A stretch of 64,000 bases of DNA from a candidate division WOR-3 bacterium (GTDB lineage Bacteria; Hydrothermota; Tepidihabitantia; B3-TA06): assembly GCA_965649265.1 (NCBI GenBank), contig CBFGKC010000010.1:1292-65291 (forward strand), given 5' to 3'. Made by a program: the position numbers and the translations under genes. Below the pieces are notes generated by a model that ran no database searches, was not told the origin of the DNA, and was given only the letters and a program-made list of their open reading frames with translations. Each line of letters starts with the position of its first letter. Position 1 is the first letter of the stretch. Below are positions 47,873 through 64,000 of the stretch, in pieces.

Positions 47873-48069
47873 TTTTCAATAAAAACATCCAAAATCGAAA
47901 TCATTGATAAAGAATTCAACGGCACCAATGCAACGCATTCACGATCTTTAACCTCACTTGTTTATGCGTCAACTTTTCGATTGTGAAGAAATTGTTTTTT
48001 TCTAAATCAAGCTTGACCCTTAGTTTTTTTTGCATAAACTTTCTTTCAAAATCCGCCAAGGAGGCAGCG

Positions 48070-50391
48070 ATGTTCAAAAAAATGTTTTTCATTATAGGGT
48101 GTTTAACCCTGCTCATCCCATTTGTATTAGGCGCACAAGTGTGGGAGCATGAACAGAGATTGACCAATGAACCGTCGGCATCTTACACAGGCTCCAACAA
48201 CGCCTGGGGCGTTGCGGCATCGGGCGATACCGTACACGTCGTATTCTACGACTACCGCGACGGCGACAACGAAATATTCTACAAGCGCTCATTTAATTGC
48301 GGCGCCACGTGGAGCCCGGACACCCAGCTCACCAGCGCGGACAGAACGTCTGAGAGACCGTCGGTAGCTGTAAAAGGGCCGAACGTTCATATCGTGTGGC
48401 TTGATAACCGCGACTATAATTTTGATATATATTACAAGCGTTCCACAAGCGCGGGCGCAAGCTGGGGACCGGATACAAGACTGACAACCCATGACAGCAT
48501 CTCGGCATATCCTTCGATGGCCGTACAGGATACCATACTCCATGTTGTGTGGTTCGACGACCGCGACTCCAGCTATGAAATATACTACAAGCGCTCCCTT
48601 AACAACGGGACGACATGGGGCTCCGATATAAGACTGACCGCAGATGACAACGACACATCGAATTTTGCCAGTGTAGCGGCACAGGGAACGAACGTCCACG
48701 TCGTATGGTTCGATACCCGTGACGGAAACAGCGAGATATATTATAAGCGCTCGGCAAATAACGGGACAGACTGGAGCGTGGATACGAGGCTCACCACCGA
48801 CAACGCCGTATCCCAATTCCCTTCGATAGCCGCGGAAGGCTCAAGCGTTCATGTCGTCTGGCAGGACAATCGCGACGGCAACCGTGAGATATACTACAAG
48901 CGCTCCCTCGACGGTGGCACAACGTGGGGACAAGACGTAAGATTGACCAATGCCGCACAGGAATCGGTTTATCCTTCAATAGCAGTACGAGACTCTAACG
49001 TTTATATCGTCTGGAAGGATCAGCGTGACGGCAACGAGGAGATATACTACAAATGTTCGACCGACAACGGGACAACGTGGCGTTCTGACACCAACCTTAC
49101 CAGCGATGCAGGTAGTTCGAAATCCTCCTCGATAGCGGCAGATGGCCCGAACGTCCACGTAATCTGGCAGGACAATCGCGACGGGAACCCTGAGATATAC
49201 TACAAGCTTGGCGGCCTGATGCAGCCCGACAACATGGTCAAGAACTCGTATGAGTCTACCTATACTGGCGACGGGGTATACAATGAGGATGGATCAGACC
49301 AGACTAGCATCCAGACCGTTAGCGCGGGCGATACAGCCGTCTACCACATAAGGATAGAAAACGACGGAGGTTTGGTAGATACGATAACGGTTACAGGCGA
49401 CACCGGCGCAGACGGCTGGGAGGTCAAATACTACGATGCCTTGACCGCCGGGGCTGAAATCACGTCGGACATCACAGGTGCAGGCTGGTCCACCGGCGAA
49501 CTAAACCCCGGGGAGTACATGGAGATAAGAGTAGAAGTTATTACGGACGACAGCCTACCGGGCGATTCAACATACGATGTGCTGATTACTTCAAAATCGG
49601 ACCGCGATACAACAAAGCTCGATGCGGTTCTGACCCGGACAGTCATCCAGTCGGGCTTTCAACCGGACAACCAGATAAAAAACATGGAGGAAACAACTTA
49701 CATCGGCGACGGCGTATATAATCTGGACGGTACAGACCAGACGAAGTCACAAACTGCCGGGGCCGGCGATACCGTGGTCTACCACATAAAGATAGAAAAC
49801 GACGGCAACCTCCCGGATACATTCATCCTAGTGGGAACTGCCGGTAACGCAGGCTGGACGATTCGCTACTTCAATACCCTGACTGCCGGGACCGAGATAA
49901 CGTCCGACATCACAGGCTCGGGCTGGAACAGCGGCGAACTCGATCCTGAGGACACGACCGATATAAGGGTAGAGGTTACCTCCCCCTCCTCTGCGACAAC
50001 AGGCACTTCCTATGACGTACTGCTAACGACGACATCCGCTTCCGACAATACACGCAAGGACGCGGTCAAGGCTACGTCAACAGTAGGAACCAGTAATGTG
50101 GAAGAAAAGATTGAGCCGTTCATCAATTCGTTAAACGTGCATCCCCTTTCGGATGTCAAGATAACAGTCTCCTGCACCCTTGCCGAAATGGGAACTATTG
50201 AGCTTTCCGTATACGATGCATCCGGACGACTGGTCAAGACCCTCGCAACGGGCAATGAGAACCAGGGCAGGCACGAGTATATATGGAACGGACTTGATGA
50301 TTCAGGAAAGAAGGTCGCGAATGGTGTCTACTTTATACACCTGTCAGCTGAGAAAGAAGTGTTAAAAGGGCGAATCACGATAGTTAAATAA
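48070..50391 (+). CDS. Secreted protein with an 8-repeat BNR/Asp-box beta-propeller, two CARDB-like domains and a T9SS C-terminal sorting domain
   Basis: A ribosome-binding site AAGGAGG and the signal peptide MFKKMFFIIGCLTLLIPFVLGA. Eight repeats of about 52 aa each carry S-x-D-x-G-x-T-W (RSLDGGTTWG, CSTDNGTTWR and others) and the segment 'VHVVW.D.RDGN.EIYYKRS'. Two segments of the form 'GDTAVYHIRIENDG.L.DT..V.G' follow. The C-terminus reads ...GVYFIHLSAEKEVLKGRITIVK. Confidence 0.75.
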   Translation: MFKKMFFIIGCLTLLIPFVLGAQVWEHEQRLTNEPSASYTGSNNAWGVAASGDTVHVVFYDYRDGDNEIFYKRSFNCGATWSPDTQLTSADRTSERPSVAVKGPNVHIVWLDNRDYNFDIYYKRSTSAGASWGPDTRLTTHDSISAYPSMAVQDTILHVVWFDDRDSSYEIYYKRSLNNGTTWGSDIRLTADDNDTSNFASVAAQGTNVHVVWFDTRDGNSEIYYKRSANNGTDWSVDTRLTTDNAVSQFPSIAAEGSSVHVVWQDNRDGNREIYYKRSLDGGTTWGQDVRLTNAAQESVYPSIAVRDSNVYIVWKDQRDGNEEIYYKCSTDNGTTWRSDTNLTSDAGSSKSSSIAADGPNVHVIWQDNRDGNPEIYYKLGGLMQPDNMVKNSYESTYTGDGVYNEDGSDQTSIQTVSAGDTAVYHIRIENDGGLVDTITVTGDTGADGWEVKYYDALTAGAEITSDITGAGWSTGELNPGEYMEIRVEVITDDSLPGDSTYDVLITSKSDRDTTKLDAVLTRTVIQSGFQPDNQIKNMEETTYIGDGVYNLDGTDQTKSQTAGAGDTVVYHIKIENDGNLPDTFILVGTAGNAGWTIRYFNTLTAGTEITSDITGSGWNSGELDPEDTTDIRVEVTSPSSATTGTSYDVLLTTTSASDNTRKDAVKATSTVGTSNVEEKIEPFINSLNVHPLSDVKITVSCTLAEMGTIELSVYDASGRLVKTLATGNENQGRHEYIWNGLDDSGKKVANGVYFIHLSAEKEVLKGRITIVK
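48180..49210 (+). repeat. Intragenic tandem repeat with a period of about 156 bp, encoding the BNR blades
   Basis: Recurrent ...gatatactacaagcgctc... segments, and the protein-level repeat. Confidence 0.5.
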
Positions 50392-51506: not shown

Positions 51507-52292
51507 TCAAACGCAATTGCCCAGAAGAATATCCAGTTCATCGGAAAGAACCAATCGGTACGATGGTTTTATCCTCTCCCTGTATGATGACGAGTGCCTG
51601 GGCGGATTGACAGGAACCGTATCTGGCTCAAAACCAGCGGATAGAGCCTGAGGTAGTATCCTTTCAATGCGTCTGGGCAGATCGAGCGAGACATTGGCTG
51701 CAGAACGCAAGGCTGCATCGAAAAGAACTTCAGGCCTGATGCCCAGATATTTGGCCGCACGAAGATTAATCCTGTAAAGATCACCCTCTGGGGATATCCG
51801 TTCAGCAAGGGGCTCATCCGTCAAAGATTCGATGGAATTCCACTCTGCAAGAAGATAGTCCCACGCCGCAGCGGTGTCCTCGAGCATATGTGCTCCACCG
51901 TACACAGCTTGAGCAATCAATTTGAGTTTATCCTTCTCCGGTAGTCCGCCGTAAAGAAGTTCCTGGTCTTTAATGATCTCATTGAACGAAGTAAGATTTA
52001 CGATATCGTCCGGATAGGAGGGAGGGGGAGGGTAAATGTCCCCAGGGAAAGCGGAGGTGCAAATCTTGAGGGAAATGCCTGTGTGTTTTACTGAAACCTC
52101 TTCAGCCGCAACGGTTTCGATTCTTTTGAAAAGCGCTTTTACAATACGTTCATATGCCGACCCTCGCCGCAAGGTGTCCAATGTTCCCAAAACGTATGTC
52201 GAGGGAACAAAACCGTCACTGGAAAGGAAAAGGCTCGATAAGGGCAGGACACCCTTGCGTGTCGGCTCAAGCCATAAGATCAAGCCAGACAT
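51507..52292 (-). CDS. Hypothetical protein
   Basis: An ORF of 261 aa with no recognisable motif. The start is uncertain. Confidence 0.35.
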   Translation of the reverse strand: MSGLILWLEPTRKGVLPLSSLFLSSDGFVPSTYVLGTLDTLRRGSAYERIVKALFKRIETVAAEEVSVKHTGISLKICTSAFPGDIYPPPPSYPDDIVNLTSFNEIIKDQELLYGGLPEKDKLKLIAQAVYGGAHMLEDTAAAWDYLLAEWNSIESLTDEPLAERISPEGDLYRINLRAAKYLGIRPEVLFDAALRSAANVSLDLPRRIERILPQALSAGFEPDTVPVNPPRHSSSYRERIKPSYRLVLSDELDILLGNCV

Positions 52293-52314: not shown

Positions 52315-55300
52315 TCAATGGACTATTATGAATTTCTCGTTAACCGACGTCATCGTCTCGGTCATGGTCGCATCAAGACTCTTGGCGGTCAAACGGTAGA
52401 TGTAAACACCGTTTGGAAGGGGCGTTCCGTCTGCGTCAAGACCGTTCCACGAATATGAGGAAAAACCAGCGGCGAACGACTGAGCGGGCAGTTTTCTTAC
52501 AAGACGACCGCTTACGGTGAATATCTGTATCGAGACCTCGGCCGCCGTATTCAATTCAAAAGTGAAATCTGCGGAACTCGAAACCGGGTTAGGATATACG
52601 AGAGGGGTAATAATTTCCGGCCTCGAAACGAATGAGGTATGAAGTGTCAATTCATATTTTGTCGTATTTCGAAGGTTATCCACGGCATACAGAGTGAGGG
52701 CGTTATCCTCTTTCGAGAACTTGATTGGCAAACTCGCCATTCCTGTCGAGGCAATTGAACTGTCGGTAACATCATAACTGAAATAAGATGAAAGACTTAT
52801 TGCGTCCTCATCGTTAATGACGAGACTCAAGGGATGCCCGCCGCCAAGGCCCACTCCGGGAAGCCCCGTAAGATTGATTCCGGAAGGATCTTCAAGCTCT
52901 ATCTCAAGATCGAACGATGGAGTCGGAATGGTATCTCCATCGAATATTTCTTCTCCTGCGACGTAAAACCTCGCGGAAGGACCCTTGTGATCACTTGATG
53001 AGGTTGACCCGGCGACAACGCCTAAAGAGTCAAACCGGAAGGTGTACAACGAATCTTCATCACGGCAAGAAATATACCAGTAAGCCGAATCTCCTTCTGC
53101 GATGCCGGTCGGAACTATGAACTTCAAGATAGTTTGACCTGCGTCAAGCTCACCTGAGGCCTCGTAAAGTGGTTCGCCCTTGGCGTAATAAATTCTGTAA
53201 TCATAAACTTGAGGTATTTTTTTAACCCAGCTTCCATATGCGGATGCAAACCATTTACCCTGGGAAAGGCCGGCGTCAAAGGTTATCTGAGCCGTGTCAC
53301 CCGTAACGAAATCTGGAGGTATCGAAGTCACATTCTTCGCCGTGGGAAACAGGAGTTCAACCCCAGGGTCGCCGAAAAGTGTATACAGGGGATCTAAAGG
53401 CAATACGGCAAAAAGAAGGTCGCCGGTATTTGCATTTTTAAGATATCTGAAGGTATTCGCCAGCGTGTTAGCCACGTTTTGGTTGTTGGATGCGCTCGTT
53501 CCTTTGGTCGCTGCGATTGTCGCTATGGCACCTCCAGAGCCGCGCACGAGTTCTTCCGCAATGCATTCCCACCGCGTGTCCTCGAATCGGCCTACGCCGC
53601 ATGAACAGAAGAGACCGAACGGAAGCCTGTTTTCATTATTAACGTACGTGACGTCGGTATTTCTGAAAACAGCTTCATGAGTCAGCTGGCTGCCATTCCC
53701 ATGCCCGAAGAAAAGCCACAAATAGGCTCCCTGATCGAGAGCGGAAATCAAGGCGTCGTGCGCGCCCGGCTTAGTGCTTCCAACGAAGGAGTAATCGCTC
53801 AAATAGACCTTTACCGGATCGTACTCAGGATATAAAAGCGTAGCGAAACTCTCACATGCCGAGATGTGATTATCTATACCGTCCTCTTTAGCCGGCGAGC
53901 CCTCGTAATAATCGTCGGACAGCAGAAGAAGCCTTGAGGCCCAGGCTTCCTTGGGGGTCGATTCATATTTTTTTATCTTGTCAAGAATATCAGATGCCTC
54001 ATGAGCGTCCCTCGCCGTAATCCGGGCGATTGACATTTCAGGATGGTATGTGACAGGGTTATCGAAGTCAACAAACCACGAATCCAGCGCGGGTCCACGC
54101 ACTTCGGTAACATTAGGGTCAAGCAGGTAATCCTGGGTGTGAACTAGGAAATACTCCGGAACAGTAAGTTTCAAATTGTTTTTGTAATCGTAAGTGCCGT
54201 CACCCAGAATGAGCGCATACCGCGGTCTCGAGTCACCTTTTTTGTACGCATAAGATAGAAAATGTCTTACGGCCTGGGGCTCGGCAAGACCGAATCCGAA
54301 ATCTCGAATTATGTCCTTAAGGTTCACTGTCTTGATCGCGGTAGCGGAAACGCCGGATATCTTGAGGTTTTGACTTCTGTAACTCTCGTATGCCTTTGCG
54401 GCACTCATATTTTCGTCGGTGGAAAGAATGATGTAGTCCACGGACCAGTCTTCGGTCCATAATTCGCCGGGCTGCTCTTTTTCCAGGGCGGGGGTCTTGA
54501 GACGACGCTCATCCGCGACCCACAAAGGAAGATCCTTCGTAATTCTCGGATTAAGGAAAAGATTCCCGTTCTTTGTTTCCCAATTCGTCAACAGAATTGG
54601 ATTTGCCGGATCACTCACGTCAAAGAGGTAAGGAGTAGTTTTGAGGCCGCTAAAGCGGTACGAAAGATTTCCCTTTAATTCTACCCAGTAGGGATTCTGA
54701 TCAAAGGAAAGCTCTCTTTCAACAACAAGCCGCATCCAGTCCGGGTAAAAATCCTGCTGCCCCTCCCCCGTCACTTCGATGACCAAAGGCAATTCATCCT
54801 GCAACACAACATCCGGATCGATAGTGGTATATCTCGGATTCGCGATCACGCCGGAAGGCACCAAGGGTACGTAAAGAAGTGTATCTGTATTCGCCAGCGC
54901 GCGAAATCCCGCACCTGTATTAATGGAGTAGGCTTGCAGGGTAAAGGTATCTATCTTTGTTACACCCTCAAGGTCTAAAATAAATGTATCGGAGGCGATC
55001 GTCGAACTCTTTTGGATATCTTCCCAAAGCCACAAAAGACCCGAGCGCGAAGGGCACTCGTGATCTTCTTCAAAATGAAGAACGCTCATCCCTTCGGTCA
55101 AAGGAGTATCCTGAGAAGGATATGCAGGTCTTGTTTGAAGCCTTTTTCCTTTTCCCGCGCCCCAAGTAAGCCAGTAAACATTTTCCTTTACATAAGGATT
55201 CACCTCAAAGGTCCGTTCGGAGAAATTCCAGTGGTTTGCACCCTGCGCGAAAAGAATTATGTAGTCAACCCCGGATAACCTGCCGTCATCCTCGCCCTGG

Positions 55301-56127
55301 ACGAAACAAGGCAGCTCGGAAAGAGTATCGGGAAAAGTATCCTCCGGGGTCAACCTTGAAGGGTAAAGGATCCTTATTGTTGAAGGATCAATCTGGGTAG
55401 GATCTACACCGATTTTCTTGAGATCACCCACACCTATCCTGTATACCCCGTCCTCTGGTATGGAAATCTTTACCCAATTCGAAGACTGGGCAAAAGGATT
55501 TGCCCCTGCGGCAAAAGTCGATGAGGAGAGTTTCCACCCCATACACTGATCATAATTGATGATACTGTTTTTGTAAATTTCGCTGAATTGATCATTTGAG
55601 ATGTCATGGTAACCTTCATATGGCTCGAACGAGATGTTGAGCGTAACCCCATCATAGAGAACGAGGGTCTGGTTACCGGAGGAGTATTTAAGCGGCGTAA
55701 CCTCTATCACCGCTACCCTGAAATCGCGCCATGTCGTTACATGGTAATAAACCGGCTTCAGAGTGTCAGCCCACTGAGGAAATGAATTTGCGCCCGTCCC
55801 AATACCAGGAATCTCGTAATTCTCAGGAATCACACCTTTTAACTCCCTTGAAGTTCCCAGGGTGTAACTGATTTTGACATCGCCCTCGGGCGGTAGCCCC
55901 ACAACCATCCTGTAGCGCGGCAGTGCAGGTCCACCCGGTTCGCCTATCATATAGGCGTCGCTGAAAAGCTCGGCAAGATTCGCTTTTGCATAAGATTGCA
56001 GAAGATTTGTACCTTGAGGAGCACTTAACTTTATCTGAACCCCTCGGTTACTCTGACTTGTAATACTGGGTCCTGCAAAAGCTGCAGTTGCAGCAAGTAA
56101 GATAAGGGTTTGAAACCTTCTCATCAT
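52315..56127 (-). CDS. Large secreted protein of 1270 aa, a probable gingipain-like (C25/clostripain-like) cysteine peptidase, with a T9SS C-terminal sorting domain
   Basis: Signal peptide MMRRFQTLILLAATAAFA. Central His...Cys arrangement LWLFFGHGNGSQL ... FGLFCSCGVG, consistent with a caspase-like CD-clan peptidase. The C-terminal region GVYIYRLTAKSLDATM...KFIIVH fits the T9SS CTD pattern. Confidence 0.5.
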   Translation of the reverse strand: MMRRFQTLILLAATAAFAGPSITSQSNRGVQIKLSAPQGTNLLQSYAKANLAELFSDAYMIGEPGGPALPRYRMVVGLPPEGDVKISYTLGTSRELKGVIPENYEIPGIGTGANSFPQWADTLKPVYYHVTTWRDFRVAVIEVTPLKYSSGNQTLVLYDGVTLNISFEPYEGYHDISNDQFSEIYKNSIINYDQCMGWKLSSSTFAAGANPFAQSSNWVKISIPEDGVYRIGVGDLKKIGVDPTQIDPSTIRILYPSRLTPEDTFPDTLSELPCFVQGEDDGRLSGVDYIILFAQGANHWNFSERTFEVNPYVKENVYWLTWGAGKGKRLQTRPAYPSQDTPLTEGMSVLHFEEDHECPSRSGLLWLWEDIQKSSTIASDTFILDLEGVTKIDTFTLQAYSINTGAGFRALANTDTLLYVPLVPSGVIANPRYTTIDPDVVLQDELPLVIEVTGEGQQDFYPDWMRLVVERELSFDQNPYWVELKGNLSYRFSGLKTTPYLFDVSDPANPILLTNWETKNGNLFLNPRITKDLPLWVADERRLKTPALEKEQPGELWTEDWSVDYIILSTDENMSAAKAYESYRSQNLKISGVSATAIKTVNLKDIIRDFGFGLAEPQAVRHFLSYAYKKGDSRPRYALILGDGTYDYKNNLKLTVPEYFLVHTQDYLLDPNVTEVRGPALDSWFVDFDNPVTYHPEMSIARITARDAHEASDILDKIKKYESTPKEAWASRLLLLSDDYYEGSPAKEDGIDNHISACESFATLLYPEYDPVKVYLSDYSFVGSTKPGAHDALISALDQGAYLWLFFGHGNGSQLTHEAVFRNTDVTYVNNENRLPFGLFCSCGVGRFEDTRWECIAEELVRGSGGAIATIAATKGTSASNNQNVANTLANTFRYLKNANTGDLLFAVLPLDPLYTLFGDPGVELLFPTAKNVTSIPPDFVTGDTAQITFDAGLSQGKWFASAYGSWVKKIPQVYDYRIYYAKGEPLYEASGELDAGQTILKFIVPTGIAEGDSAYWYISCRDEDSLYTFRFDSLGVVAGSTSSSDHKGPSARFYVAGEEIFDGDTIPTPSFDLEIELEDPSGINLTGLPGVGLGGGHPLSLVINDEDAISLSSYFSYDVTDSSIASTGMASLPIKFSKEDNALTLYAVDNLRNTTKYELTLHTSFVSRPEIITPLVYPNPVSSSADFTFELNTAAEVSIQIFTVSGRLVRKLPAQSFAAGFSSYSWNGLDADGTPLPNGVYIYRLTAKSLDATMTETMTSVNEKFIIVH

Positions 56128-56292: not shown

Positions 56293-57792
56293 TCAGGTGA
56301 TTTTAGCTTTATCATACACAGGTTCCCCAACACCCACCTCATCCTTTTTGAGTGCCGCAGCAATGGATGAAAAACTGAAGGACAGGAATCCCACGGAGTA
56401 AAGTATAATGAAAGGCAGAATTGCATACTGCATGGTTATGAGCGAATATACGGCAGTGGCGGCAAGATAAAGACCGAGCGCCAACTCAATGAAAGTAGAA
56501 ACCTTCAACTTGGCCTTGTACACTTTAGAGTCTTTTGCATCCTTGCGGCCCTTGACGTTGTATTTCGGAGTGCGAACGAACTCGGACGCCTTCCCCATAA
56601 AACCTTCCAATACTGCAAGGCTGTTGTTAACCGAAAGTGCCATAACCGATGAAATTACGAAAGGTATTGCAAGTATCCTCGTTTTCCAGTTAGGGTAGGA
56701 ATCCATCTGCGCAAGGATGTAAAGCCCGAAGTATGCTATTCCGCCGATAGAGATGACGCTCATGAACGCAAAGTAGGGACGATAGTCAATCCCTGAGTTG
56801 CGGACAAGGAGGAGGGGGGCGATAAGAATGGCAAGAAGGAACATCATGGGATACACGAGATGGGCAGTAAGGTGCATAATGGCTTCAAACTTGCCGATAA
56901 GGCTGAGCTTCGAGGTGAGTATATCAGGCAGGAGTTTGCGTCCGGCCTGGATGGTCCCTTTTGCCCAGCGGAACTGCTGCGACTTGAATCCCGCAACGTC
57001 TATTGGCAGCTCCGACGGACTTCTTAAGTCGTTTATGTATATAAACTTCCAACCCTTGAGTTGGGCGCGAAAACTCAAATCGACGTCCTCGGCAAGGCAG
57101 TCGCCGTCCCAACCGCCGGCATCTTCTATAGCTTTCTTACGCCACACACCCGCGGTCCCGTTGAACGTCATAAAATGGTTAAAACGGCAGCGCATATCTT
57201 GCTCGACCGCGAAATGCTGGTCTAAAAGAATCGCCTGAGCTCTTGTAAGAATCGAGTAATCGTAATTTATATGTTCCCAGCGCGACTGAACAACCGCGAT
57301 CTTCGGGTTCGAAAAGAAGGGGATAGTGCGCTTTAGAAAGTCTTCGGGAGGAAGGAAGTCGGCGTCAAAAACGGCAACGTACTCGGCCTTGGTTTTCGCA
57401 AGTCCAGCTGTAAGTGCACCACCCTTGTATCCCTTGCGGTCAACTCTGTGAAAAAGCCTGATTCGGAAGCCTTCAGCTTTGTACTTTGCGACGAGACGTT
57501 CGCAAAGCTCTGTGGTCTCGTCGGTGGAATCATCAAGTACCTGGATTTCGAATTTCTGGCGCGGCCAATCCATCTTCACAACCTGCTCCAGCAAACGCTC
57601 CACGACGAACTTTTCGTTAAACATGGGCAGCTGAACACAGACAAGCGGGTATTCGGAAAGCGGATCCGCCTTGGGTCTTGGTTTTTTGCGCGCTCTCAAA
57701 TAGTAAATGCACATAATCCATGCATGCAGTGCGTAGATTGTAAGCACTATCATTACGAATGCATACAGCGCCAGAACGAAATCAAACTTCAT
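56293..57792 (-). CDS. Processive GT2 polysaccharide synthase (CesA / PgaC / CslA-like), integral membrane
   Basis: N-terminal TM segment. LPMFNEKFVV (DD-type), FDADF (DxD), LAEDVD (TED) and QQFRWAKG (QxxRW). The C-terminal region has 4 to 5 TM helices. Confidence 0.85.
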   Translation of the reverse strand: MKFDFVLALYAFVMIVLTIYALHAWIMCIYYLRARKKPRPKADPLSEYPLVCVQLPMFNEKFVVERLLEQVVKMDWPRQKFEIQVLDDSTDETTELCERLVAKYKAEGFRIRLFHRVDRKGYKGGALTAGLAKTKAEYVAVFDADFLPPEDFLKRTIPFFSNPKIAVVQSRWEHINYDYSILTRAQAILLDQHFAVEQDMRCRFNHFMTFNGTAGVWRKKAIEDAGGWDGDCLAEDVDLSFRAQLKGWKFIYINDLRSPSELPIDVAGFKSQQFRWAKGTIQAGRKLLPDILTSKLSLIGKFEAIMHLTAHLVYPMMFLLAILIAPLLLVRNSGIDYRPYFAFMSVISIGGIAYFGLYILAQMDSYPNWKTRILAIPFVISSVMALSVNNSLAVLEGFMGKASEFVRTPKYNVKGRKDAKDSKVYKAKLKVSTFIELALGLYLAATAVYSLITMQYAILPFIILYSVGFLSFSFSSIAAALKKDEVGVGEPVYDKAKIT

Positions 57793-59018
57793 TTAAGTTT
57801 CTCCTCGCTCTCAAAAACTAGTTTTCCTTTTAAAGGCTTTCGTAATTTTACAGCCAGGGCCAATGCCTCCTGATATGTAGGCACATTCGCAATTTTAACT
57901 AATTCCGTCTTGCTGTCAATCGGAAGTACTTCGTACAAAATGCCGTCCACCACTACACCAACGTAGTCGGCAAAAAGTTGGGAAGATGATATCTCCGAAT
58001 TCTTAAGCGAGATTTCGACCCACGGCCTTGAGAGCGAATCGAACCTCAGTTCGGCTGAACGAACCTTCGGTCTTGCGAGGGTATCGGTTATGTAAAAGAT
58101 GTCTGTGGCTTGCCCCCTGGTGTTGATGCGCTGCCCGCCTGCCTTGAGCGAGAGAGAGACAAGGTAAAGTCTGCCCTCACCCGCGATGTTTTTTGCCACA
58201 ACCTCGTCCAGCGGAAGCGTAAGAGTGACCTTGAGCCTCTCCTGATCCGTGCGTATTCGCGCTTCCCGTCCGAGATCGGCAAAACGAGCCCGCATTGCCG
58301 ATCTAGCTCTCATTACGCTTGTCGATCCTGACGAATACGAAATAAGAAAGTTGGGTGCAAAAGGCATGTCTATTCCGCGTTTCTGATTGAAAGCCTTTAT
58401 CTTGAAGTTGAAAACTATGTCGGAATCGTCCGAAATCCCTTTTATCTCCTTGGCAAGCAGGGTTCTTCCGTCTACGATCAACTCACCCGAAAATTTCTTT
58501 TGGAAAGCAGGATCAAGAAAAGCTATATTAGGTTTGAAGGAGTATTTAAGAACCCGGCCCTCATCGGCAAGAAGCTTAAAACCCTTGTTGTTGCGAATGA
58601 GAAGCGCATCCCGAACGATGCGGTCGACCTGTTCCATAACGCGTCCCTCCTCACTGCGCTGCCTGGGAATCCACTCACCGTCCTCCTTGTCGAGTTCATA
58701 GTCACCGGCCGCAACAAGATCGAGCAACCGGACTTCTTCATCAAGTTTCCACGTTCCCCTGAAACGAAGCGCATCCGGCAGAACAACACTGCCCTTGCCT
58801 TGTACGGAGAATGCGAGAGATTTGCGGCTGATAAAATAATCGAACATGAAGGAGTGCTGGTTCTTGATTCCCTCCCACGAGTAGGAGGGAATCTGTTCGT
58901 AAGCCAATCCTTCCGGTGGTCTTGTAACCGGCATGCACGCGGCCGAGGCGAGTACCGTGAGAAAAAAGGATAAGCCTATAAGCGAATGGAGATCATGTCT
59001 GGAGAAGCCATACCTCAT
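57789..59018 (-). CDS. Hypothetical lipoprotein, operon partner of the GT2 synthase
   Basis: Signal peptide with Cys (FFLTVLASAACMP). 409 aa. No CE4, GH or TPR motifs were found. There is a 4-bp overlap with the synthase start. Confidence 0.45.
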   Translation of the reverse strand: MRYGFSRHDLHSLIGLSFFLTVLASAACMPVTRPPEGLAYEQIPSYSWEGIKNQHSFMFDYFISRKSLAFSVQGKGSVVLPDALRFRGTWKLDEEVRLLDLVAAGDYELDKEDGEWIPRQRSEEGRVMEQVDRIVRDALLIRNNKGFKLLADEGRVLKYSFKPNIAFLDPAFQKKFSGELIVDGRTLLAKEIKGISDDSDIVFNFKIKAFNQKRGIDMPFAPNFLISYSSGSTSVMRARSAMRARFADLGREARIRTDQERLKVTLTLPLDEVVAKNIAGEGRLYLVSLSLKAGGQRINTRGQATDIFYITDTLARPKVRSAELRFDSLSRPWVEISLKNSEISSSQLFADYVGVVVDGILYEVLPIDSKTELVKIANVPTYQEALALAVKLRKPLKGKLVFESEEKLK

Positions 59019-59116
59019 TTAAGCATCCTCTCTTTTTGAGTTTAAGAGGTACCTCAGACTTCCTGAAAAAGTCGGTGTCTGAGGGAAAGTGTCTGACAAG
59101 GGACGAGGAGGGCTCA

Positions 59117-61972
59117 TCAGAAATCGGCTCCAATCCTGAAGTGCGCGCGCCACACGTCCCAGCCGTAAAGGCTGGGGTCGGATTTTATGTAGGGCCGGGC
59201 AAAATCGAGTTTCAGCATCCAGTAGCCGAAGAGATATCGCAGACCGAACCCGAAACCGGCCTTGAGGTCCACGAGCTGCCCTGTGGAATCCCAGAACACA
59301 GGCGGGGTCGAGTCCCATGTGAACCCGGCGTCCGTGAAAACCACACCCCTTAAATCGCTCAATCTCAGGGGGAGGGGGAAAGCCAGGTTCAAGAGATCGA
59401 CGAACGGAACCCTTAGCTCGAGGTTAGAGAAAACTATCTTTGAACCGATGGAGGGCGTGTAGGGACTGTACCCCCTGACGTCGTAAGGTCCTCCCAGTGT
59501 AAACCACTCGTGATCTGCTCCAAAGCTCGCCGCGCCGAGAAGCCTGAGTGCGAGCGCCGAACGCTTGGTTAAAGAGACATAGCCCCTCATGTCGGCAATG
59601 ACGGACTGGTAGGAAAGCCTTGAGATTGCCGGAATGGACGAGTAACCCTCAAGACGCAGCCTCAGCCCACGCATCGGTGTAGAGTACTTCCACAGGGCGT
59701 TGTCGAATACGAGCGCTCCGGAACCCTGGAAAAGTGGATACGTCGAAGTGCTGCTGTCTTGATAGACAATATACCCGTTTTCATCGTACTTGCAGTTAAG
59801 TAAAGCCTTGTCGGTTACGGCCATGCCGTCTACGCCCGTTTCAAAACGGAAGAATTTCGTAAAGGGGAAAGCGAGAAGCGCACTCGCTCCCCTTCTGGCT
59901 TCTTTGATGTAGTCGAAGGTCGAATCCGTAAGCCAGTAGCGGTAAAAATCGGCCAGCTGATAGGCTCCTACCGCCCAGTCAACGCGGCGCTTGAAATTCC
60001 AGTAAGTGAAAACGATATCGGAGTAAAGTATATCTCCATAGAGTTCGGCATCCACGTAGAAACGGTGGTCGCCGAGCATGTCGCTTATGCCCAGGCTGAA
60101 ACTTCCCTGCGCTCCGTAAAGAGAAGAATACGCACCGGTGCCGTAGATGTAATCGGCGGAAAAGGTCGGCTTGTAGGGTTTCATCTCCTCGGGCGTAAGT
60201 TCAACGTTCTTGTACGAATAGGGAGCGGCCTCAACGGCGAGAACGGTGTCCTTGTTTTCGGGAACGGGTTCGAGACTGCCGAGCGTCCCGTTGAGCATGC
60301 ATACGTCCCAGCCTGAGTTATTGTAAAGAAGGAATGAGGTCTTCCCCGAAGAAGCAGGTGAAAACTCTTCTATTTTGTCGAACCAGTCCGTCATTCGCAG
60401 CGGTACGGAATCGGAAGGCGTCATGCGGTAGAGTTGGTAGCCTGCACCGACGAAGTAAAGATTTTCGTTGACCACATGCGGGGAAGACAGGAATCCATAT
60501 CTTCCGGTGACCCTCTTCACGCGACCCGACGGCAGAAGTGACCATACGGCATAGCTTCCGACGTTCCACGTCGAGTCCTGATCGGGTCTGTCGGAGGCGA
60601 AATAGATGGTATCACCACTGAAAGAAGGGTCCTTTTCTTCATAAAGGTCGAACGTGAGACGGTTAGTCTTGCCGGTCTTGAGATCGAGCGAATAAAGATC
60701 GCTTTCCCCTTCATTCACTCCGACATAGATGACCTGGCTTCCGTCGGACGAGACCGCAGGTGAATACGCATCATCCACCTTAAGCTGGTATCGCCTGGTC
60801 ACTTTTGCGCTTGCGTAATCGACCCATAGGAGCACCGGCCTTTCCTTGGAAAACCCTATAACGGCAAGTGCAGACTCGTCGCCTGACCAGCACATGGTAT
60901 TGCGAAGAAGAGGCAGACGTTCGAAGGTAGCCGACTGACCCGCGCGAAGCAGTCTCTTTAAAGGCTTGCCGTCGAATCCGCTTATGACGTTTATGGCAAT
61001 GTAGTCGTCCTTGCTCGTTGCGTAGGCAATCTTCGCGCCTGTAGGCGAGAGCGCGACGCTGCCGTTGTAATATGAAAAATCCTTCTCGTGATCGGTCAGG
61101 AGCCGTGCCTGGATGGAACGGTTGTTGAGCCTTGCGACCCCGGGCCAGTACCGCATCCTGAGCCAGTTGAGCCACTCCTTTCCTAAATCCTTGACGTTCA
61201 TGCCGAAAACCTTGTCGAATGCCGCGTTCATGTCCCGCCTGACCTGAAGTTCGTTAAGAAGTTCAAAAACCTTCTTGCGTCCGTAGCGCTCTTCGATAAA
61301 GAGAAAAACCGACTCTCCCTGCCTGTAAACGAGATAACCGCTCCAGTATCCAAGTTCCTCGAGAGGGATGACGTTATTGTTGAGAAGCAAGTCTTGCATG
61401 AATGGGTCCTCCTCTCCTGAGCCGTGGGAGGAGCAAAACTCCGCCGCTCCCTCCATTATCCAGTCAGGAGGCGTAAAACCCGGGATTAGAGAAAACAAGT
61501 TGGAGAGGGTTAGAGAGTAGTAGAGCTCGAACTCGAATATGTGCGTGAGTTCGTGCTCAAGAACGTGCTTCAGGTCCGAATAAGAACCCGTGAATGGAAC
61601 TACCACGCGATTCTTGAAAAGCTCGGAAAACCCGCCGACGGATTCCTCAATAGGTTCCAATATTATGTTGGTTGCGGCAAAATCGGGCTGTGATTTGTAT
61701 ATGATGACAGGGATCTTTACACCAAGCGTGACCCCGAAATCCGCCGTCCTTTGTTTATAGGATTCTTCGAGAATCCCTCCTGCAAAACGCGCAAGGGGCT
61801 CCCCCCCCTCTTCTATATAGATAGAAAAATGTTCGGTTTCATACGTATATGTGGGAGTCACCTCCCGCTGAATCTTGTTCTTTTCGTAATAATACTGGCC
61901 GAACAGAGGAAGAGATACTCCCAGGACAAAAACAACAACCCGGATCGTTTTAGACCACACAAGTTCCTCCAA
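59117..61972 (-). CDS. Outer-membrane protein with three parts: an N-terminal HExxH (peptidase MA-like) domain, a PD40 / TolB-like beta-propeller, and a C-terminal Omp85 (bacterial surface antigen) beta-barrel
   Basis: Signal peptide. VLEHELTHIFEFE (HExxH). TolB-like repeats (SPAVSSDGSQVIYVGVNEGESDLYSLDLKTGKTNRLT...DPSFSGDTIYFASDR). C-terminus ...GFGFGLRYLFGYWMLKLDFARPYIKSDPSLYGWDVWRAHFRIGADF, which matches the BamA/TamA barrel C-terminus (G.G.R...P.G.L..D.A.P......FHF.IG..F, with a terminal Phe). Confidence 0.7.
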   Translation of the reverse strand: MEELVWSKTIRVVVFVLGVSLPLFGQYYYEKNKIQREVTPTYTYETEHFSIYIEEGGEPLARFAGGILEESYKQRTADFGVTLGVKIPVIIYKSQPDFAATNIILEPIEESVGGFSELFKNRVVVPFTGSYSDLKHVLEHELTHIFEFELYYSLTLSNLFSLIPGFTPPDWIMEGAAEFCSSHGSGEEDPFMQDLLLNNNVIPLEELGYWSGYLVYRQGESVFLFIEERYGRKKVFELLNELQVRRDMNAAFDKVFGMNVKDLGKEWLNWLRMRYWPGVARLNNRSIQARLLTDHEKDFSYYNGSVALSPTGAKIAYATSKDDYIAINVISGFDGKPLKRLLRAGQSATFERLPLLRNTMCWSGDESALAVIGFSKERPVLLWVDYASAKVTRRYQLKVDDAYSPAVSSDGSQVIYVGVNEGESDLYSLDLKTGKTNRLTFDLYEEKDPSFSGDTIYFASDRPDQDSTWNVGSYAVWSLLPSGRVKRVTGRYGFLSSPHVVNENLYFVGAGYQLYRMTPSDSVPLRMTDWFDKIEEFSPASSGKTSFLLYNNSGWDVCMLNGTLGSLEPVPENKDTVLAVEAAPYSYKNVELTPEEMKPYKPTFSADYIYGTGAYSSLYGAQGSFSLGISDMLGDHRFYVDAELYGDILYSDIVFTYWNFKRRVDWAVGAYQLADFYRYWLTDSTFDYIKEARRGASALLAFPFTKFFRFETGVDGMAVTDKALLNCKYDENGYIVYQDSSTSTYPLFQGSGALVFDNALWKYSTPMRGLRLRLEGYSSIPAISRLSYQSVIADMRGYVSLTKRSALALRLLGAASFGADHEWFTLGGPYDVRGYSPYTPSIGSKIVFSNLELRVPFVDLLNLAFPLPLRLSDLRGVVFTDAGFTWDSTPPVFWDSTGQLVDLKAGFGFGLRYLFGYWMLKLDFARPYIKSDPSLYGWDVWRAHFRIGADF

Positions 61973-62072: not shown

Positions 62073-63881
62073 TTAATCGACGGTAATAGTCTTTGATATG
62101 TTTCGCGGCCTGTCCGGATTGCAGCCCTTGCCGACGGCGGTCCGGTACGCAATCATGTACAAGGGAACGGTGGCAAGAATCGGCATAAGTGCCGGGCTTG
62201 CATCCGGCATGGTGTAATAGAGATCGCTGTCCGCCTCAAGCTCCGCATCATGGGGACCAATGGTCAAAACCCTCCCCTTGCGGGTGCGAACCTCGTTTAC
62301 GTGAGAAAGGATGTAGTACTTTTCGGGCGCGGAAACGACGAAGAGCACCGGATACCCCTCCTCCAGACGAGAAATTGGCCCATGCTTGAATTCACCCGAA
62401 TACATGCCCTCGACATGAAGGTAGGTTATTTCTTTCATCTTGAGCGCCCCTTCCATCACAACAGGGTAACTCATCCCATAACCCAGGTAGTACGCATCAG
62501 GCGACTTGGAGAGCTCGTCCGCAAACGCCCGCACCTTGCTCTCGTCCTGCAGAACCCTTTGCAGGAGACCGGGCAGCGAAAGGAACTCCCTTGCCGATAG
62601 CCCGTTACTTCCTCTGTCGTGTCCTATTCTCAGGGCAAGATAAAGGAGAGCGATAACCTGATTCACGTAGGTCTTGGTCGCAGGAACGGCAATCTCGAGG
62701 TCGGAAGCGATAGGCAGCACGTAGCGGGAACGCATGGCAAGTGTAGAACCTATGTTGTTTACGAGCGAGATGACCTGTGTGCGGTTCTCTATAACGTCGA
62801 GAACGTTCTTTATGTCCTTGGTCTCGCCGCTCTGGGAGATGAGGAGGACCACGTCGCGCTCGTCAACGCAATCAGGGTATTTTTCAAGAAACTCGGACCC
62901 GAAGGACGCCGTTACCGGGATCCGGGCAAGCCTTCCGAAGTAGAAAGACCCGAGAAGTCCGGCGAAATGCGAGGAGCCGGCGCCCACAAAAAAGACACGA
63001 CGAGCAATTGCCAGCTTCTCGACAACCGTGGAGGTATGCTCGGCCTTAGGTAAATAACGTATAACCTCCTGCGCTTTCGAGGGAATCTCGTGAATCTCCT
63101 TGAGCATGAAATGCGGGAAATCACCCTTGGAAACCTCCTCCGGGGTCAGTGTGAGTTCTTCTATCTCTCTTTCGACCGGCACTGACAAGTCGGAGAGAGA
63201 GTAAACGTCGTGATTAGATGAGGTGAAGTGAACCATCTCGCCGTCTTGCAGCTGTACAACGTTGCGCGTGAGATCAAGAATGGCCACGAGGTCGCTCGAG
63301 ACGCAGCGAAAACCCTCTCCTACACCAAAGAAAAGTGATGAGCCGTTTTTGACCGACACGAACCCGTCGCCGTCAAGTGTCGTGGCTACGTAGGCATAGG
63401 AACCCTTCATCCGCGAAGATGCCTCGCGAGCGGCATGGCGCAGGTTCTTGGTTTCGTAGAAAGGCGCTTCGAGCAGATGCAGTATCACCTCACCGTCGTT
63501 CTCACCTATAAGCGCATGACCGCCCGCTGAAAGCTCTTCGCGCAGGTTACGGGTGTTGATTATGTTGCCGTTGTGCGCGCCTACAAGAAAGCGCTTGCAG
63601 TCATGGTGGGGCTGGGAATTTTCCTTGTTCGGGAAACCGAAGGTCGCCCATCGAAGCTGTATTATGCCGCGCTGACCGGTCATATCCGAAAAACCTAAAA
63701 TCTCGTTAAGCTCCTCCACCTCGCCCGCGTCCTTGCGGAGATCGAGTTTTCCCGAGGCCGAGATTGTCGCAACACCCGCGGTGTCGTAGCCGCGGTAAGC
63801 AAGACGCGTGCCCGCCCGGTAGAGAATCTCGCCGAGATCGGAACGCTCCTTGTCAAAGGAAATCGCAAAGAATCCACACAT
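62073..63881 (-). CDS. glmS: Glutamine--fructose-6-phosphate aminotransferase, isomerising
   Basis: The N-terminal nucleophile MCGFFAI (Cys2). Two SIS domains. C-terminus ...PDRPRNISKTITVD. The track ORF begins 17 codons upstream, but the MCG start at 63881 is the conserved one. Confidence 0.9.
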   Translation of the reverse strand: MCGFFAISFDKERSDLGEILYRAGTRLAYRGYDTAGVATISASGKLDLRKDAGEVEELNEILGFSDMTGQRGIIQLRWATFGFPNKENSQPHHDCKRFLVGAHNGNIINTRNLREELSAGGHALIGENDGEVILHLLEAPFYETKNLRHAAREASSRMKGSYAYVATTLDGDGFVSVKNGSSLFFGVGEGFRCVSSDLVAILDLTRNVVQLQDGEMVHFTSSNHDVYSLSDLSVPVEREIEELTLTPEEVSKGDFPHFMLKEIHEIPSKAQEVIRYLPKAEHTSTVVEKLAIARRVFFVGAGSSHFAGLLGSFYFGRLARIPVTASFGSEFLEKYPDCVDERDVVLLISQSGETKDIKNVLDVIENRTQVISLVNNIGSTLAMRSRYVLPIASDLEIAVPATKTYVNQVIALLYLALRIGHDRGSNGLSAREFLSLPGLLQRVLQDESKVRAFADELSKSPDAYYLGYGMSYPVVMEGALKMKEITYLHVEGMYSGEFKHGPISRLEEGYPVLFVVSAPEKYYILSHVNEVRTRKGRVLTIGPHDAELEADSDLYYTMPDASPALMPILATVPLYMIAYRTAVGKGCNPDRPRNISKTITVD

Positions 63882-64000
63882 TGAACTTAATGATAGCCAC
63901 CAAGGTTTGAATGTCAAGACAAGATCAATCATGACCGAAGTCAGGTTTAATTTTATGAGGTCACGTTTTATGAAAAAAAGTGGACAAAAGATGGACAGAA

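Follow-up and report, generated by a model that had tools for sequence, protein, structure and literature searches.

A WD40-like Omp85 protein and its SecD P1-like lipoprotein neighbour, beside a glycosyltransferase gene and a PorU-type sortase gene, in a candidate division WOR-3 bacterium

In a stretch of 64,000 nucleotides (nt) from a candidate division WOR-3 bacterium (GenBank assembly GCA_965649265.1, contig CBFGKC010000010.1, positions 1,292 to 65,291 of the forward strand), which was analysed as a whole and is called the window hereafter, three genes follow one another on the minus strand and encode an outer-membrane protein (OMP), a lipoprotein (LP), and a membrane-embedded family-2 glycosyltransferase (GT2). 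The order OMP-lipoprotein-synthase is superficially like pgaA-pgaB-pgaC, and a first-pass annotation of the locus suggested that it could be a novel polysaccharide secretion and modification system with an unprecedented outer-membrane component. The question raised by this locus is whether the two envelope proteins belong to the synthase encoded beside them or to each other. Domain content and gene order among relatives point to the latter: the OMP and the lipoprotein appear as a unit of their own, for which a role in handling proteins at the outer membrane may be proposed. The three genes and their domains, given in amino acids (aa) where they concern the proteins, are the following:

59117-61972, minus strand: OMP gene (WD40-like Omp85), 951 aa; Pfam Omp85 at 6e-16, AlphaFold2 model
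61103-61855, minus strand: N-terminal HExxH gluzincin-like (Peptidase_MA_2/M1-like) domain of the OMP, ~aa 40-290; HELTH at aa 140-144 (nt 61541-61555), putative third ligand E174
60293-61075, minus strand: TolB-like beta-propeller of the OMP, ~aa 300-560
59120-60184, minus strand: 16-strand Omp85 (BamA/TamA-type) barrel of the OMP, ~aa 597-951; VRGY at 832-835, FxDxG at 879-883
57789-59018, minus strand: lipoprotein gene, 409 aa; lipobox Cys28 at nt 58935-58937
57804-58337, minus strand: SecDF P1-like domain of the lipoprotein, ~aa 228-405, from the family profile
56293-57792, minus strand: GT2 gene, 499 aa; membrane-embedded family-2 glycosyltransferase, BcsA/PgaC/CslA-like

Matches to homologues, with E values of 0 or close to it, identify all three as real genes and not fortuitous open reading frames (ORFs), and the ORF list gives exactly the three co-oriented frames that the first-pass annotation had named. 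Its description of them as overlapping holds for the lipoprotein/GT2 junction (4 bp, 57789-57792), the sole overlap among the three genes in the window, but not for the OMP and lipoprotein genes, which lie 98 bp apart here; in relatives, the reading frames of the same two genes overlap or nearly abut.

The OMP matches the Pfam families Omp85 (59.3 bits, cut-off 24) and PD40 (26.7 bits, cut-off 20.9, the single repeats being individually not significant). An AlphaFold2 model built from 22 homologues (predicted local distance difference test, pLDDT, 82; predicted template modelling score, pTM, 0.78) displays a signal peptide, an alpha/beta-plus-helical domain (~40-290), a TolB-like propeller of six blades (~300-560), and a barrel of 16 long strands at aa 604-948. 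This barrel carries both lid-lock motifs, defined as (V/L)RG(Y/F) in loop 6 and FxDxG in strand 13 (PMC11358297), in the form of VRGY (832-835) and FTDAG (879-883); of their residues, R833, G834, F879, and D881 do not vary among the 22 homologues (31-76% identity), and Y835 hardly does. In the same set, H140, E141, H144, and E174 of the N-terminal domain are invariant, which suggests a functional metallopeptidase site, and the HExxH...E zinc peptidase domain is probably active. Some OMP homologues match PF13485 at E 1e-5 or better; when a profile of the domain was run against the PDB, an M1 aminopeptidase and an M9 collagenase (with EGxAEY) came up at non-significant E values of 0.5-0.7. The N-terminal domains would be periplasmic, since this is the usual topology of Omp85 proteins. 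No POTRA domain was found in the OMP by Pfam scan, and domain scans gave no tetratricopeptide repeat (TPR) match in the OMP, the lipoprotein or GT2. The architecture read by the first-pass annotation, i.e. an HExxH domain, tentatively peptidase-like, and a TolB-like propeller ahead of an Omp85 barrel in place of TPRs and a PgaA/BcsC/AlgE-type porin, is borne out by these results, including the strand count.

The adjective unprecedented, in contrast, had to be given up. A WD40-like Omp85 subfamily was defined bioinformatically (Heinz and Lithgow, 2014, Front Microbiol 5:370; PMC4104836), and the account given there of it agrees with the protein of the window: an Omp85 barrel follows a TolB-like propeller and an aminopeptidase-like region (a putative one in the window), POTRA domains are lacking, and PF01103 is combined with PF07676. 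In Table S3 of that paper, the propeller is best modelled on TolB and the N-terminal region on M1 aminopeptidases or collagenase (Phyre), the members coming from Caldithrix, Rhodothermus, Chloroherpeton, Cloacimonas, Sorangium, and others; the passages on the subfamily propose a role resembling that of a BamA-BamB fusion and name no partner gene (PMC4104836). A 2024 paper on Leptospira summarizes the subfamily with the words "divergent WD40 and peptidase domains". Judged by its domain content, the OMP is a new member of this known, functionally uncharacterised subfamily. More than 236 full-length homologues are present in the databases searched, several of them named ‘BamA/TamA family outer membrane protein’ at NCBI (from WOR-3, Latescibacteria, TA06, Eisenbacteria, and Stahlbacteria). 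Among species-representative genomes, at least 572 contain a relative of the OMP; they range over WOR-3, Zixibacteria, KSB1, Calditrichia, Ignavibacteria, Marinimicrobia, Gemmatimonadota, Fibrobacterota, Bacteroidota, Poribacteria, Leptospiraceae, and others. The family is also found under the labels Spirochaetota and Moduliflexus/Vecturithrix, and in myxobacteria.

The insertases BamA and TamA differ from the OMP. Its periplasmic part consists of a peptidase-like domain and a propeller in place of POTRA domains, and its partner would be a P1-like lipoprotein and not BamB-E or TamB. Classification as a BamA equivalog was ruled out (TIGR03303 49.6 bits versus a cut-off of 297, no POTRA domain), as was classification as TamL (24 bits versus a cut-off of 400, NCBIfam).

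For the lipoprotein, the clearest evidence comes from its more distant relatives. Its family, with 86 clusters (50% identity) in a set of 1.84 billion representatives, is a small one, the lipobox cysteine Cys28 is invariant in the homologues, and the single sequence has no match in Pfam, NCBIfam or the PDB. Two profiles were compared, one of the close clade to which the window belongs (A2, whose alignment found six loci in a metagenome scan) and a wider one with distant family members included (A3). The A3 profile aligns, along 179 of its positions and at E 2e-13, with 3aqo, the P1 domain of Thermus thermophilus SecDF taken by itself; it has exactly five PDB matches with E <=0.001, all of them SecD/SecDF. 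A full-length family member, P0259, matches Pfam SecDF_P1_head with 33.5 bits, above the cut-off of 27. Three motifs that are invariant in the lipoproteins of the window's clade pair with motifs of 3aqo, namely FDSLSRP with FDQFGRP, VVVDG.LY with IVLDGRVY, and EAL.LA.KL with EASEIALVL. By this transitive route, the C-terminal half of the lipoprotein is accepted as a homologue of P1 in SecDF, the two aligning across nearly the whole of P1 (PDB 3aqo/3aqp).

The P1 domain of SecDF binds emerging, unfolded preprotein. Compared with SecDF, the lipoprotein is soluble and lipid-anchored, has a shorter head, and is fused to an N-terminal half that is beta-rich; it lacks the RND-type body of 12 transmembrane (TM) segments, so that proton-driven movement is not possible. 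As the first-pass annotation had stated, the lipoprotein is devoid of a carbohydrate esterase family 4 (CE4) deacetylase or glycoside hydrolase (GH) signature; the same applies to its family, in which no CE4, GH, epimerase, lyase or other carbohydrate-active signature was detected at E values up to 10. Among the papers listed by a literature search for a SecDF-P1-like lipoprotein combined with an Omp85 protein, none evidently describes the two together. Two-partner secretion by a TpsB/TpsA couple, which had been offered as a fallback, was ruled out, the OMP having no POTRA domain and the adjoining 409-aa protein being a P1-like lipoprotein without a Pfam match. The broader idea of that fallback, an Omp85 protein translocator whose gene adjoins a glycan gene, agrees better with what was found.

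Whether GT2 belongs to the same unit can be judged from the arrangement of these genes in other genomes. In the window, which comes from a bacterium of the FCB group, six genes form a conserved cell-envelope string on one strand, reading glmS, WD40-like Omp85, SecD-P1-like lipoprotein, GT2, porU, and a gene for a 261-aa protein (P261). The flanking members of this string are:

62073-63932, minus strand: glmS (glutamine--fructose-6-phosphate transaminase), directly upstream of the OMP gene; NCBIfam NF001484 494 bits versus a cut-off of 381
52315-56127, minus strand: gene of a type IX secretion system (T9SS) sortase, PorU-type, downstream of GT2; C25 peptidase that carries a C-terminal sorting domain of its own
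51507-52292, minus strand: gene of a 261-aa conserved protein, 3' of porU; homologues keep this position

Neighbourhoods of close and distant relatives were scored with phmmer and iterated hidden Markov models, and 80 genome loci from other species were fetched in addition. Five orders were distinguished (loci carry the prefix L; brackets mark genes that may be lacking):

(glmS)-OMP-LP-GT2-PorU-(P261): the window, L003/4, L087, L088/93, L090-L095, L098, L099; OMP identity 36-94%
OMP-LP-PorU-P261, without GT2: L001; OMP 62% identical to that of the window
OMP-LP-PorU, without GT2: L009, L011, L013
OMP-LP beside mreBCD-PBP2-rodA, with neither PorU nor GT2: L005/6, L097
OMP-PorU: L019

The lipoprotein gene is located directly 3' of the OMP homologue in all of the ~15 loci in which it was placed (~13 lineages), with lipoprotein identity falling to ~20%. 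GT2 behaves differently. The triad, continued by PorU, recurs in at least eight related metagenomic lineages with OMP identity as low as 36%, and in most of these glmS lies upstream (L003, L087, L088, L090-L092, L095, and L098; not in L099, nor in L001 and L005, which lack GT2). Within this group, the triad is thus found again in other genomes; from L001, GT2 is missing, and none of the 80 genome loci of other species has a GT2 homologue within 10 kb of the OMP. Only in one WOR-3 subclade is GT2 situated between lipoprotein and PorU, and its absence from L001 implies that the OMP-lipoprotein module is independent of it. Read from gene order, the stable module consists of OMP and lipoprotein, with PorU as a frequent third member in WOR-3, and GT2, an insertion peculiar to one subclade, can be lost. 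Relative to the subfamily as outlined in the passages cited above (PMC4104836), what the WOR-3 clade adds is a dedicated SecD-P1-like lipoprotein, a frequent position next to PorU and, for one subclade, GT2.

Such patterns may also arise from plain synteny, with glmS, the Omp85 paralogue, the lipoprotein, GT2, and porU being co-transcribed for convenience and sharing no pathway. The coming and going of GT2 and glmS would fit this explanation, as would the different neighbours that the OMP has in different phyla (MurA, RNase R/TamB-like, CtpA, mreBCD). The adjacency of OMP and lipoprotein in every locus examined does not: kept in spite of an identity of ~20%, it would be difficult to account for if the two had no functional link, and we regard mere synteny as rather unlikely.

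GT2 itself is a well-defined enzyme. It matches GT2 families of Pfam at 1e-21 to 1e-23, and its best PDB match is BcsA (5e-22), with the catalytic motifs DAD, FFCGS/FNGT, (T)ED, and QxxRW aligned. The corresponding residues are DDS87, DAD143, FNGT210 (for FFCGS), ED235, and QQFRW272; of the three motifs ascribed to the protein earlier, DxD and QxxRW are present, whereas TED is replaced by AED (EDVD at 235). A TM scan marks one N-terminal segment (5-23) and, toward the C-terminus, segments at 312-330 and 342-360 and an overlapping block at 434-479; read from the sequence, there is one N-terminal helix and there are ~5 C-terminal ones, ~6 in all. BcsA-type motifs together with TM helices make a processive membrane-embedded beta-glycosyltransferase plausible, and GT2 is probably processive, in line with the first reading of it and at odds with a non-processive enzyme without a channel.

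The likeness does not extend to orthology. GT2 as an orthologue of PgaC was ruled out (PgaC_IcaA 103.9 bits versus a cut-off of 422), and so was GT2 as an orthologue of cellulose synthase/BcsA (CelA 107.7 bits versus 699, PRK11498 84 versus 992), so that the comparison suggested in the first-pass annotation yields aligned motifs and cut-offs far missed. The search that it proposed for a PilZ domain or a PgaD-like partner ended likewise: no PilZ was found by Pfam on GT2, which ends at 499 aa, or on its neighbours, and the ORF list contains no PgaD-like small co-oriented membrane ORF between the genes.

Homologues of GT2 number at least 7998 and measure ~485-510 aa; the non-WOR-3 matches listed are 46-49% identical over nearly the full length, and source names include ‘cellulose synthase family protein’ and ‘cellulose synthase/PNAG synthase-like’. 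In a Sphingobacteriales-labelled genome (L089), the orthologue is found between lptE and a TPR gene, and in a genome of Vicinamibacterales (Acidobacteria; L100) it stands alone between purE and the citrate synthase gene. The motifs DDS, DAD, FNGTAGVWR, ED, and QQxRW, the length of ~500 aa, and the array of one N-terminal and several C-terminal TM helices are those of BcsA and, as we take it, of plant CslA/CslC synthases as well. Unlike cellulose synthase, GT2 has no PilZ domain, and its bacterial orthologues stand isolated among housekeeping genes, a position that a glycolipid synthase would fit as well. Literature searches meant to place the enzyme (monoglucosyldiacylglycerol synthase, CslA) gave nothing decisive. 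Since it is a strongly conserved stand-alone enzyme, GT2 fits a synthase of an envelope glycan or, perhaps, a glycolipid that would need no dedicated outer-membrane exporter.

With these facts at hand, the reading as a synthase-dependent exopolysaccharide system can be weighed. It states that GT2 polymerises and translocates a glycan, that the lipoprotein serves as scaffold or modifier, and that the Omp85 barrel or its lateral gate is the exit, in the manner of pgaA-pgaB-pgaC. A membrane GT2 with all the BcsA-type catalytic motifs (D, DxD, ED, QxxRW) and ~6 TM helices, as found in PgaABCD, BcsABC, and alginate systems, is what such a system requires; translational coupling joins the lipoprotein gene to that of GT2, the triad recurs mostly after glmS, and glmS could feed a polymer that contains GlcNAc. 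The remaining parts differ. The OMP is of the Omp85 type, with the lid-lock motifs of protein insertases; CE4 and GH domains are absent from the lipoprotein, whose recognisable domain is by analogy of a protein-binding type; and PilZ, PgaD, and TPRs are lacking. Synthase and OMP are not co-inherited beyond one WOR-3 subclade: the OMP-lipoprotein pair does without GT2 in L001, L005/L097, L009, L011, and L013, and GT2 orthologues of 48-49% identity stand alone in other phyla. No Omp85 protein is known to conduct glycans. An exopolysaccharide system is in our estimation highly improbable, and exit of the GT2 product through the Omp85 barrel is unlikely. With its synteny split, a P1-like lipoprotein in the second position and no modifying enzyme, the locus does not support the novel polysaccharide secretion and modification system with which its description began.

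A different assignment is suggested by the gene that follows. PorU of the window scores 434.4 bits with NCBIfam T9SS_sortase NF033707 (cut-off 420) and 2e-55 with Pfam Peptidase_C25, and its C-terminus matches FlgD_ig/Por_Secre_tail in Pfam, which qualifies it as a sortase. The Omp85 protein and the P1-like lipoprotein may then be an accessory module of the T9SS that acts with PorU (and PorV) late in type IX secretion, while GT2, fed by glmS, would build the glycan or glycolipid anchor used by PorU, in parallel to the anionic lipopolysaccharide (A-LPS) of Porphyromonas gingivalis, to which PorU of that species reportedly attaches cargo. PorU comes directly after OMP-lipoprotein(-GT2) in L001, L003, L009, L011, L013, L019 (where it adjoins the OMP itself), L087, L088, L090-L095, L098, and L099; adjacency is seen in ~12 lineages, and PorU precedes the OMP in L068. 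In L009, L011, L013, L019, and L072, Pfam PorV (80 bits) identifies a PorV homologue a few kb past PorU; there is none beside PorU in the window itself. A T9SS-type cargo gene is also near (47983-50391). The distribution of the OMP family argues the other way, as it includes Poribacteria, Leptospiraceae, myxobacteria, and genomes labelled Spirochaetota or Moduliflexus/Vecturithrix, groups in which no T9SS is known. In L005/L097, the OMP-lipoprotein pair is found beside mreBCD/PBP2/rodA without PorU, most of the 80 genome loci lack PorU, and no known T9SS component is an Omp85 protein. Taken together, a dedicated T9SS function appears unlikely.

The preferred interpretation, a module for handling proteins at the outer membrane that consists of OMP and P1-like lipoprotein, is put forward as an evenly balanced proposal. 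It is drawn by analogy from four domains, a BamA-type barrel with lateral-gate motifs, a TolB/Tricorn-like propeller, a gluzincin-like peptidase, and a SecDF-P1-like domain, all of which act on polypeptides in their characterised relatives. In the periplasm, the pair would take hold of envelope proteins that are unfolded or emerging; at the outer membrane, it would then assemble them, translocate them, or process and cull them by proteolysis. In the WOR-3 lineage, it would probably serve surface proteins that are handled by the adjacent PorU. In one WOR-3 subclade, GT2 would have been inserted between the lipoprotein gene and porU and is presumably co-translated there, its product being an envelope glycan or glycolipid.

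Comparable machines are known. BepA is a periplasmic M48 HExxH protease of Escherichia coli with a TPR domain, and works at the BAM complex on stalled outer-membrane proteins. It offers a functional analogy, that of a zinc peptidase with a protein-interaction scaffold at an Omp85 machine; it differs in peptidase family and scaffold and is not fused to a barrel, and no homology is claimed. TamA/TamB and BAM with BepA are accordingly proposed as possible functional analogues of the OMP-lipoprotein module. A bolder version would see in OMP and lipoprotein a new machine, which takes up unfolded polypeptides, processes them with its HExxH domain, and inserts or exports them through the barrel, acting in WOR-3 with PorU and with a surface-protein anchor made by GT2. 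If true, this would be a new pathway of protein surface display coupled to glycan synthesis; we consider it very unlikely.

Several observations weigh against a protein-handling module. Throughout the WD40-like subfamily, protein handling is deduced from domain analogy and gene adjacency. The Peptidase_MA_2 match of the OMP (26.2 bits, E 8e-6) is below the Pfam cut-off of 32.4. For the clade of the window, the P1 signal of the lipoprotein is weak and depends on intermediate sequences: the A2 profile has no match in the PDB, and its alignment to 3aqo by hhalign is collinear and weak (E 0.019). The AlphaFold2 model of the lipoprotein (12-sequence alignment) has a pLDDT of 49 and is too poor for a fold search. 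Outside WOR-3, the gene 3' of the OMP comes from other families without relation to the lipoprotein (a GWxTD protein, a 224-aa lipoprotein), and the 409-aa protein is therefore not a universal partner. Finally, the 4-bp overlap of lipoprotein and GT2 genes is kept down to 36% OMP identity, which argues for real co-expression and possibly for a functional link to a glycan, and adjacency to glmS recurs too. These two are the best arguments for some glycan link, which for this reason is not dismissed.

Beyond WOR-3, the OMP genes are flanked by a variety of envelope and housekeeping genes, CtpA among them. In Zixibacteria and related metagenome-assembled genomes (MAGs), murA (UDP-GlcNAc enolpyruvyl transferase) lies directly 5' of the OMP homologue (L016, L021, L033, L049, L065, L075, and L085). 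In eight loci of KSB1-like and other lineages (L017, L020, L028, L029, L032, L036, L063, and L073), a secreted GWxTD protein of ~435 aa (PF20094, 65 bits) is encoded right 3' of the OMP. Another eight, from Ignavibacteria/Bacteroidota-labelled MAGs (L050, L055, L067, L074, L076, L079, L081, and L086), show RNase R and a DUF748/TamB-like protein of ~1500 aa on the 5' side, and 370-470 nt on the 3' side a lipoprotein of 224 aa without a family match. As remote homologues of the 409-aa protein, the 435-aa GWxTD protein and the 224-aa lipoprotein were ruled out (hhalign probability <=0.5%).

Some details of the locus remain to be recorded. The 261-aa protein has no Pfam or NCBIfam match, signal peptide or TM segment; its homologues follow PorU in L001, L088, L090-L093, and L095, and genes of 257/259 aa occupy this place in L098/L099. 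Tiny ORFs lie between GT2 and PorU in two relatives (L003, 12758-12934, 58 aa, a Trm112p-like zinc ribbon; L099, 11680-11805, 41 aa), and the 165-nt GT2-PorU gap of the window has no ORF >=80 aa that would be their equivalent. The plus-strand gene at 47983-50391, ~2 kb from porU, encodes 802 aa with BNR repeats, DUF11, and a C-terminal FlgD_ig/T9SS-type sorting domain, and its product is likely a T9SS cargo. Promoter and terminator scans of the window gave totals not above shuffled expectation; within the 3' end of the lipoprotein gene, ~100 nt 5' of the GT2 start, they include a sigma-70-like candidate on the minus strand (57892-57919; TTGACA, 16 nt, TAAAAT, 11/12 matches), the consensus of which may differ in WOR-3.

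What is believed to be new in this locus, judging from gene order and profile comparison, is the constant pairing of an Omp85 protein with a SecD-P1-like lipoprotein in a WOR-3 clade, together with the frequent linkage of both to PorU. The claim of a new polysaccharide export route was tempting and weakly founded, and has been removed; the very large family of ~495-aa BcsA/CslA-like glycosyltransferases, to which GT2 belongs, is flagged here in its own right. For the WD40-like Omp85 subfamily, whose relatives occur in hundreds of species of the FCB superphylum and beyond, a lipoprotein partner with a SecDF-P1-like domain, the gene of which is often next to that of the T9SS sortase, is the first concrete and testable hint to a function. 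It suggests that the subfamily handles polypeptides at the outer membrane, be it in assembly, surface export or quality control.

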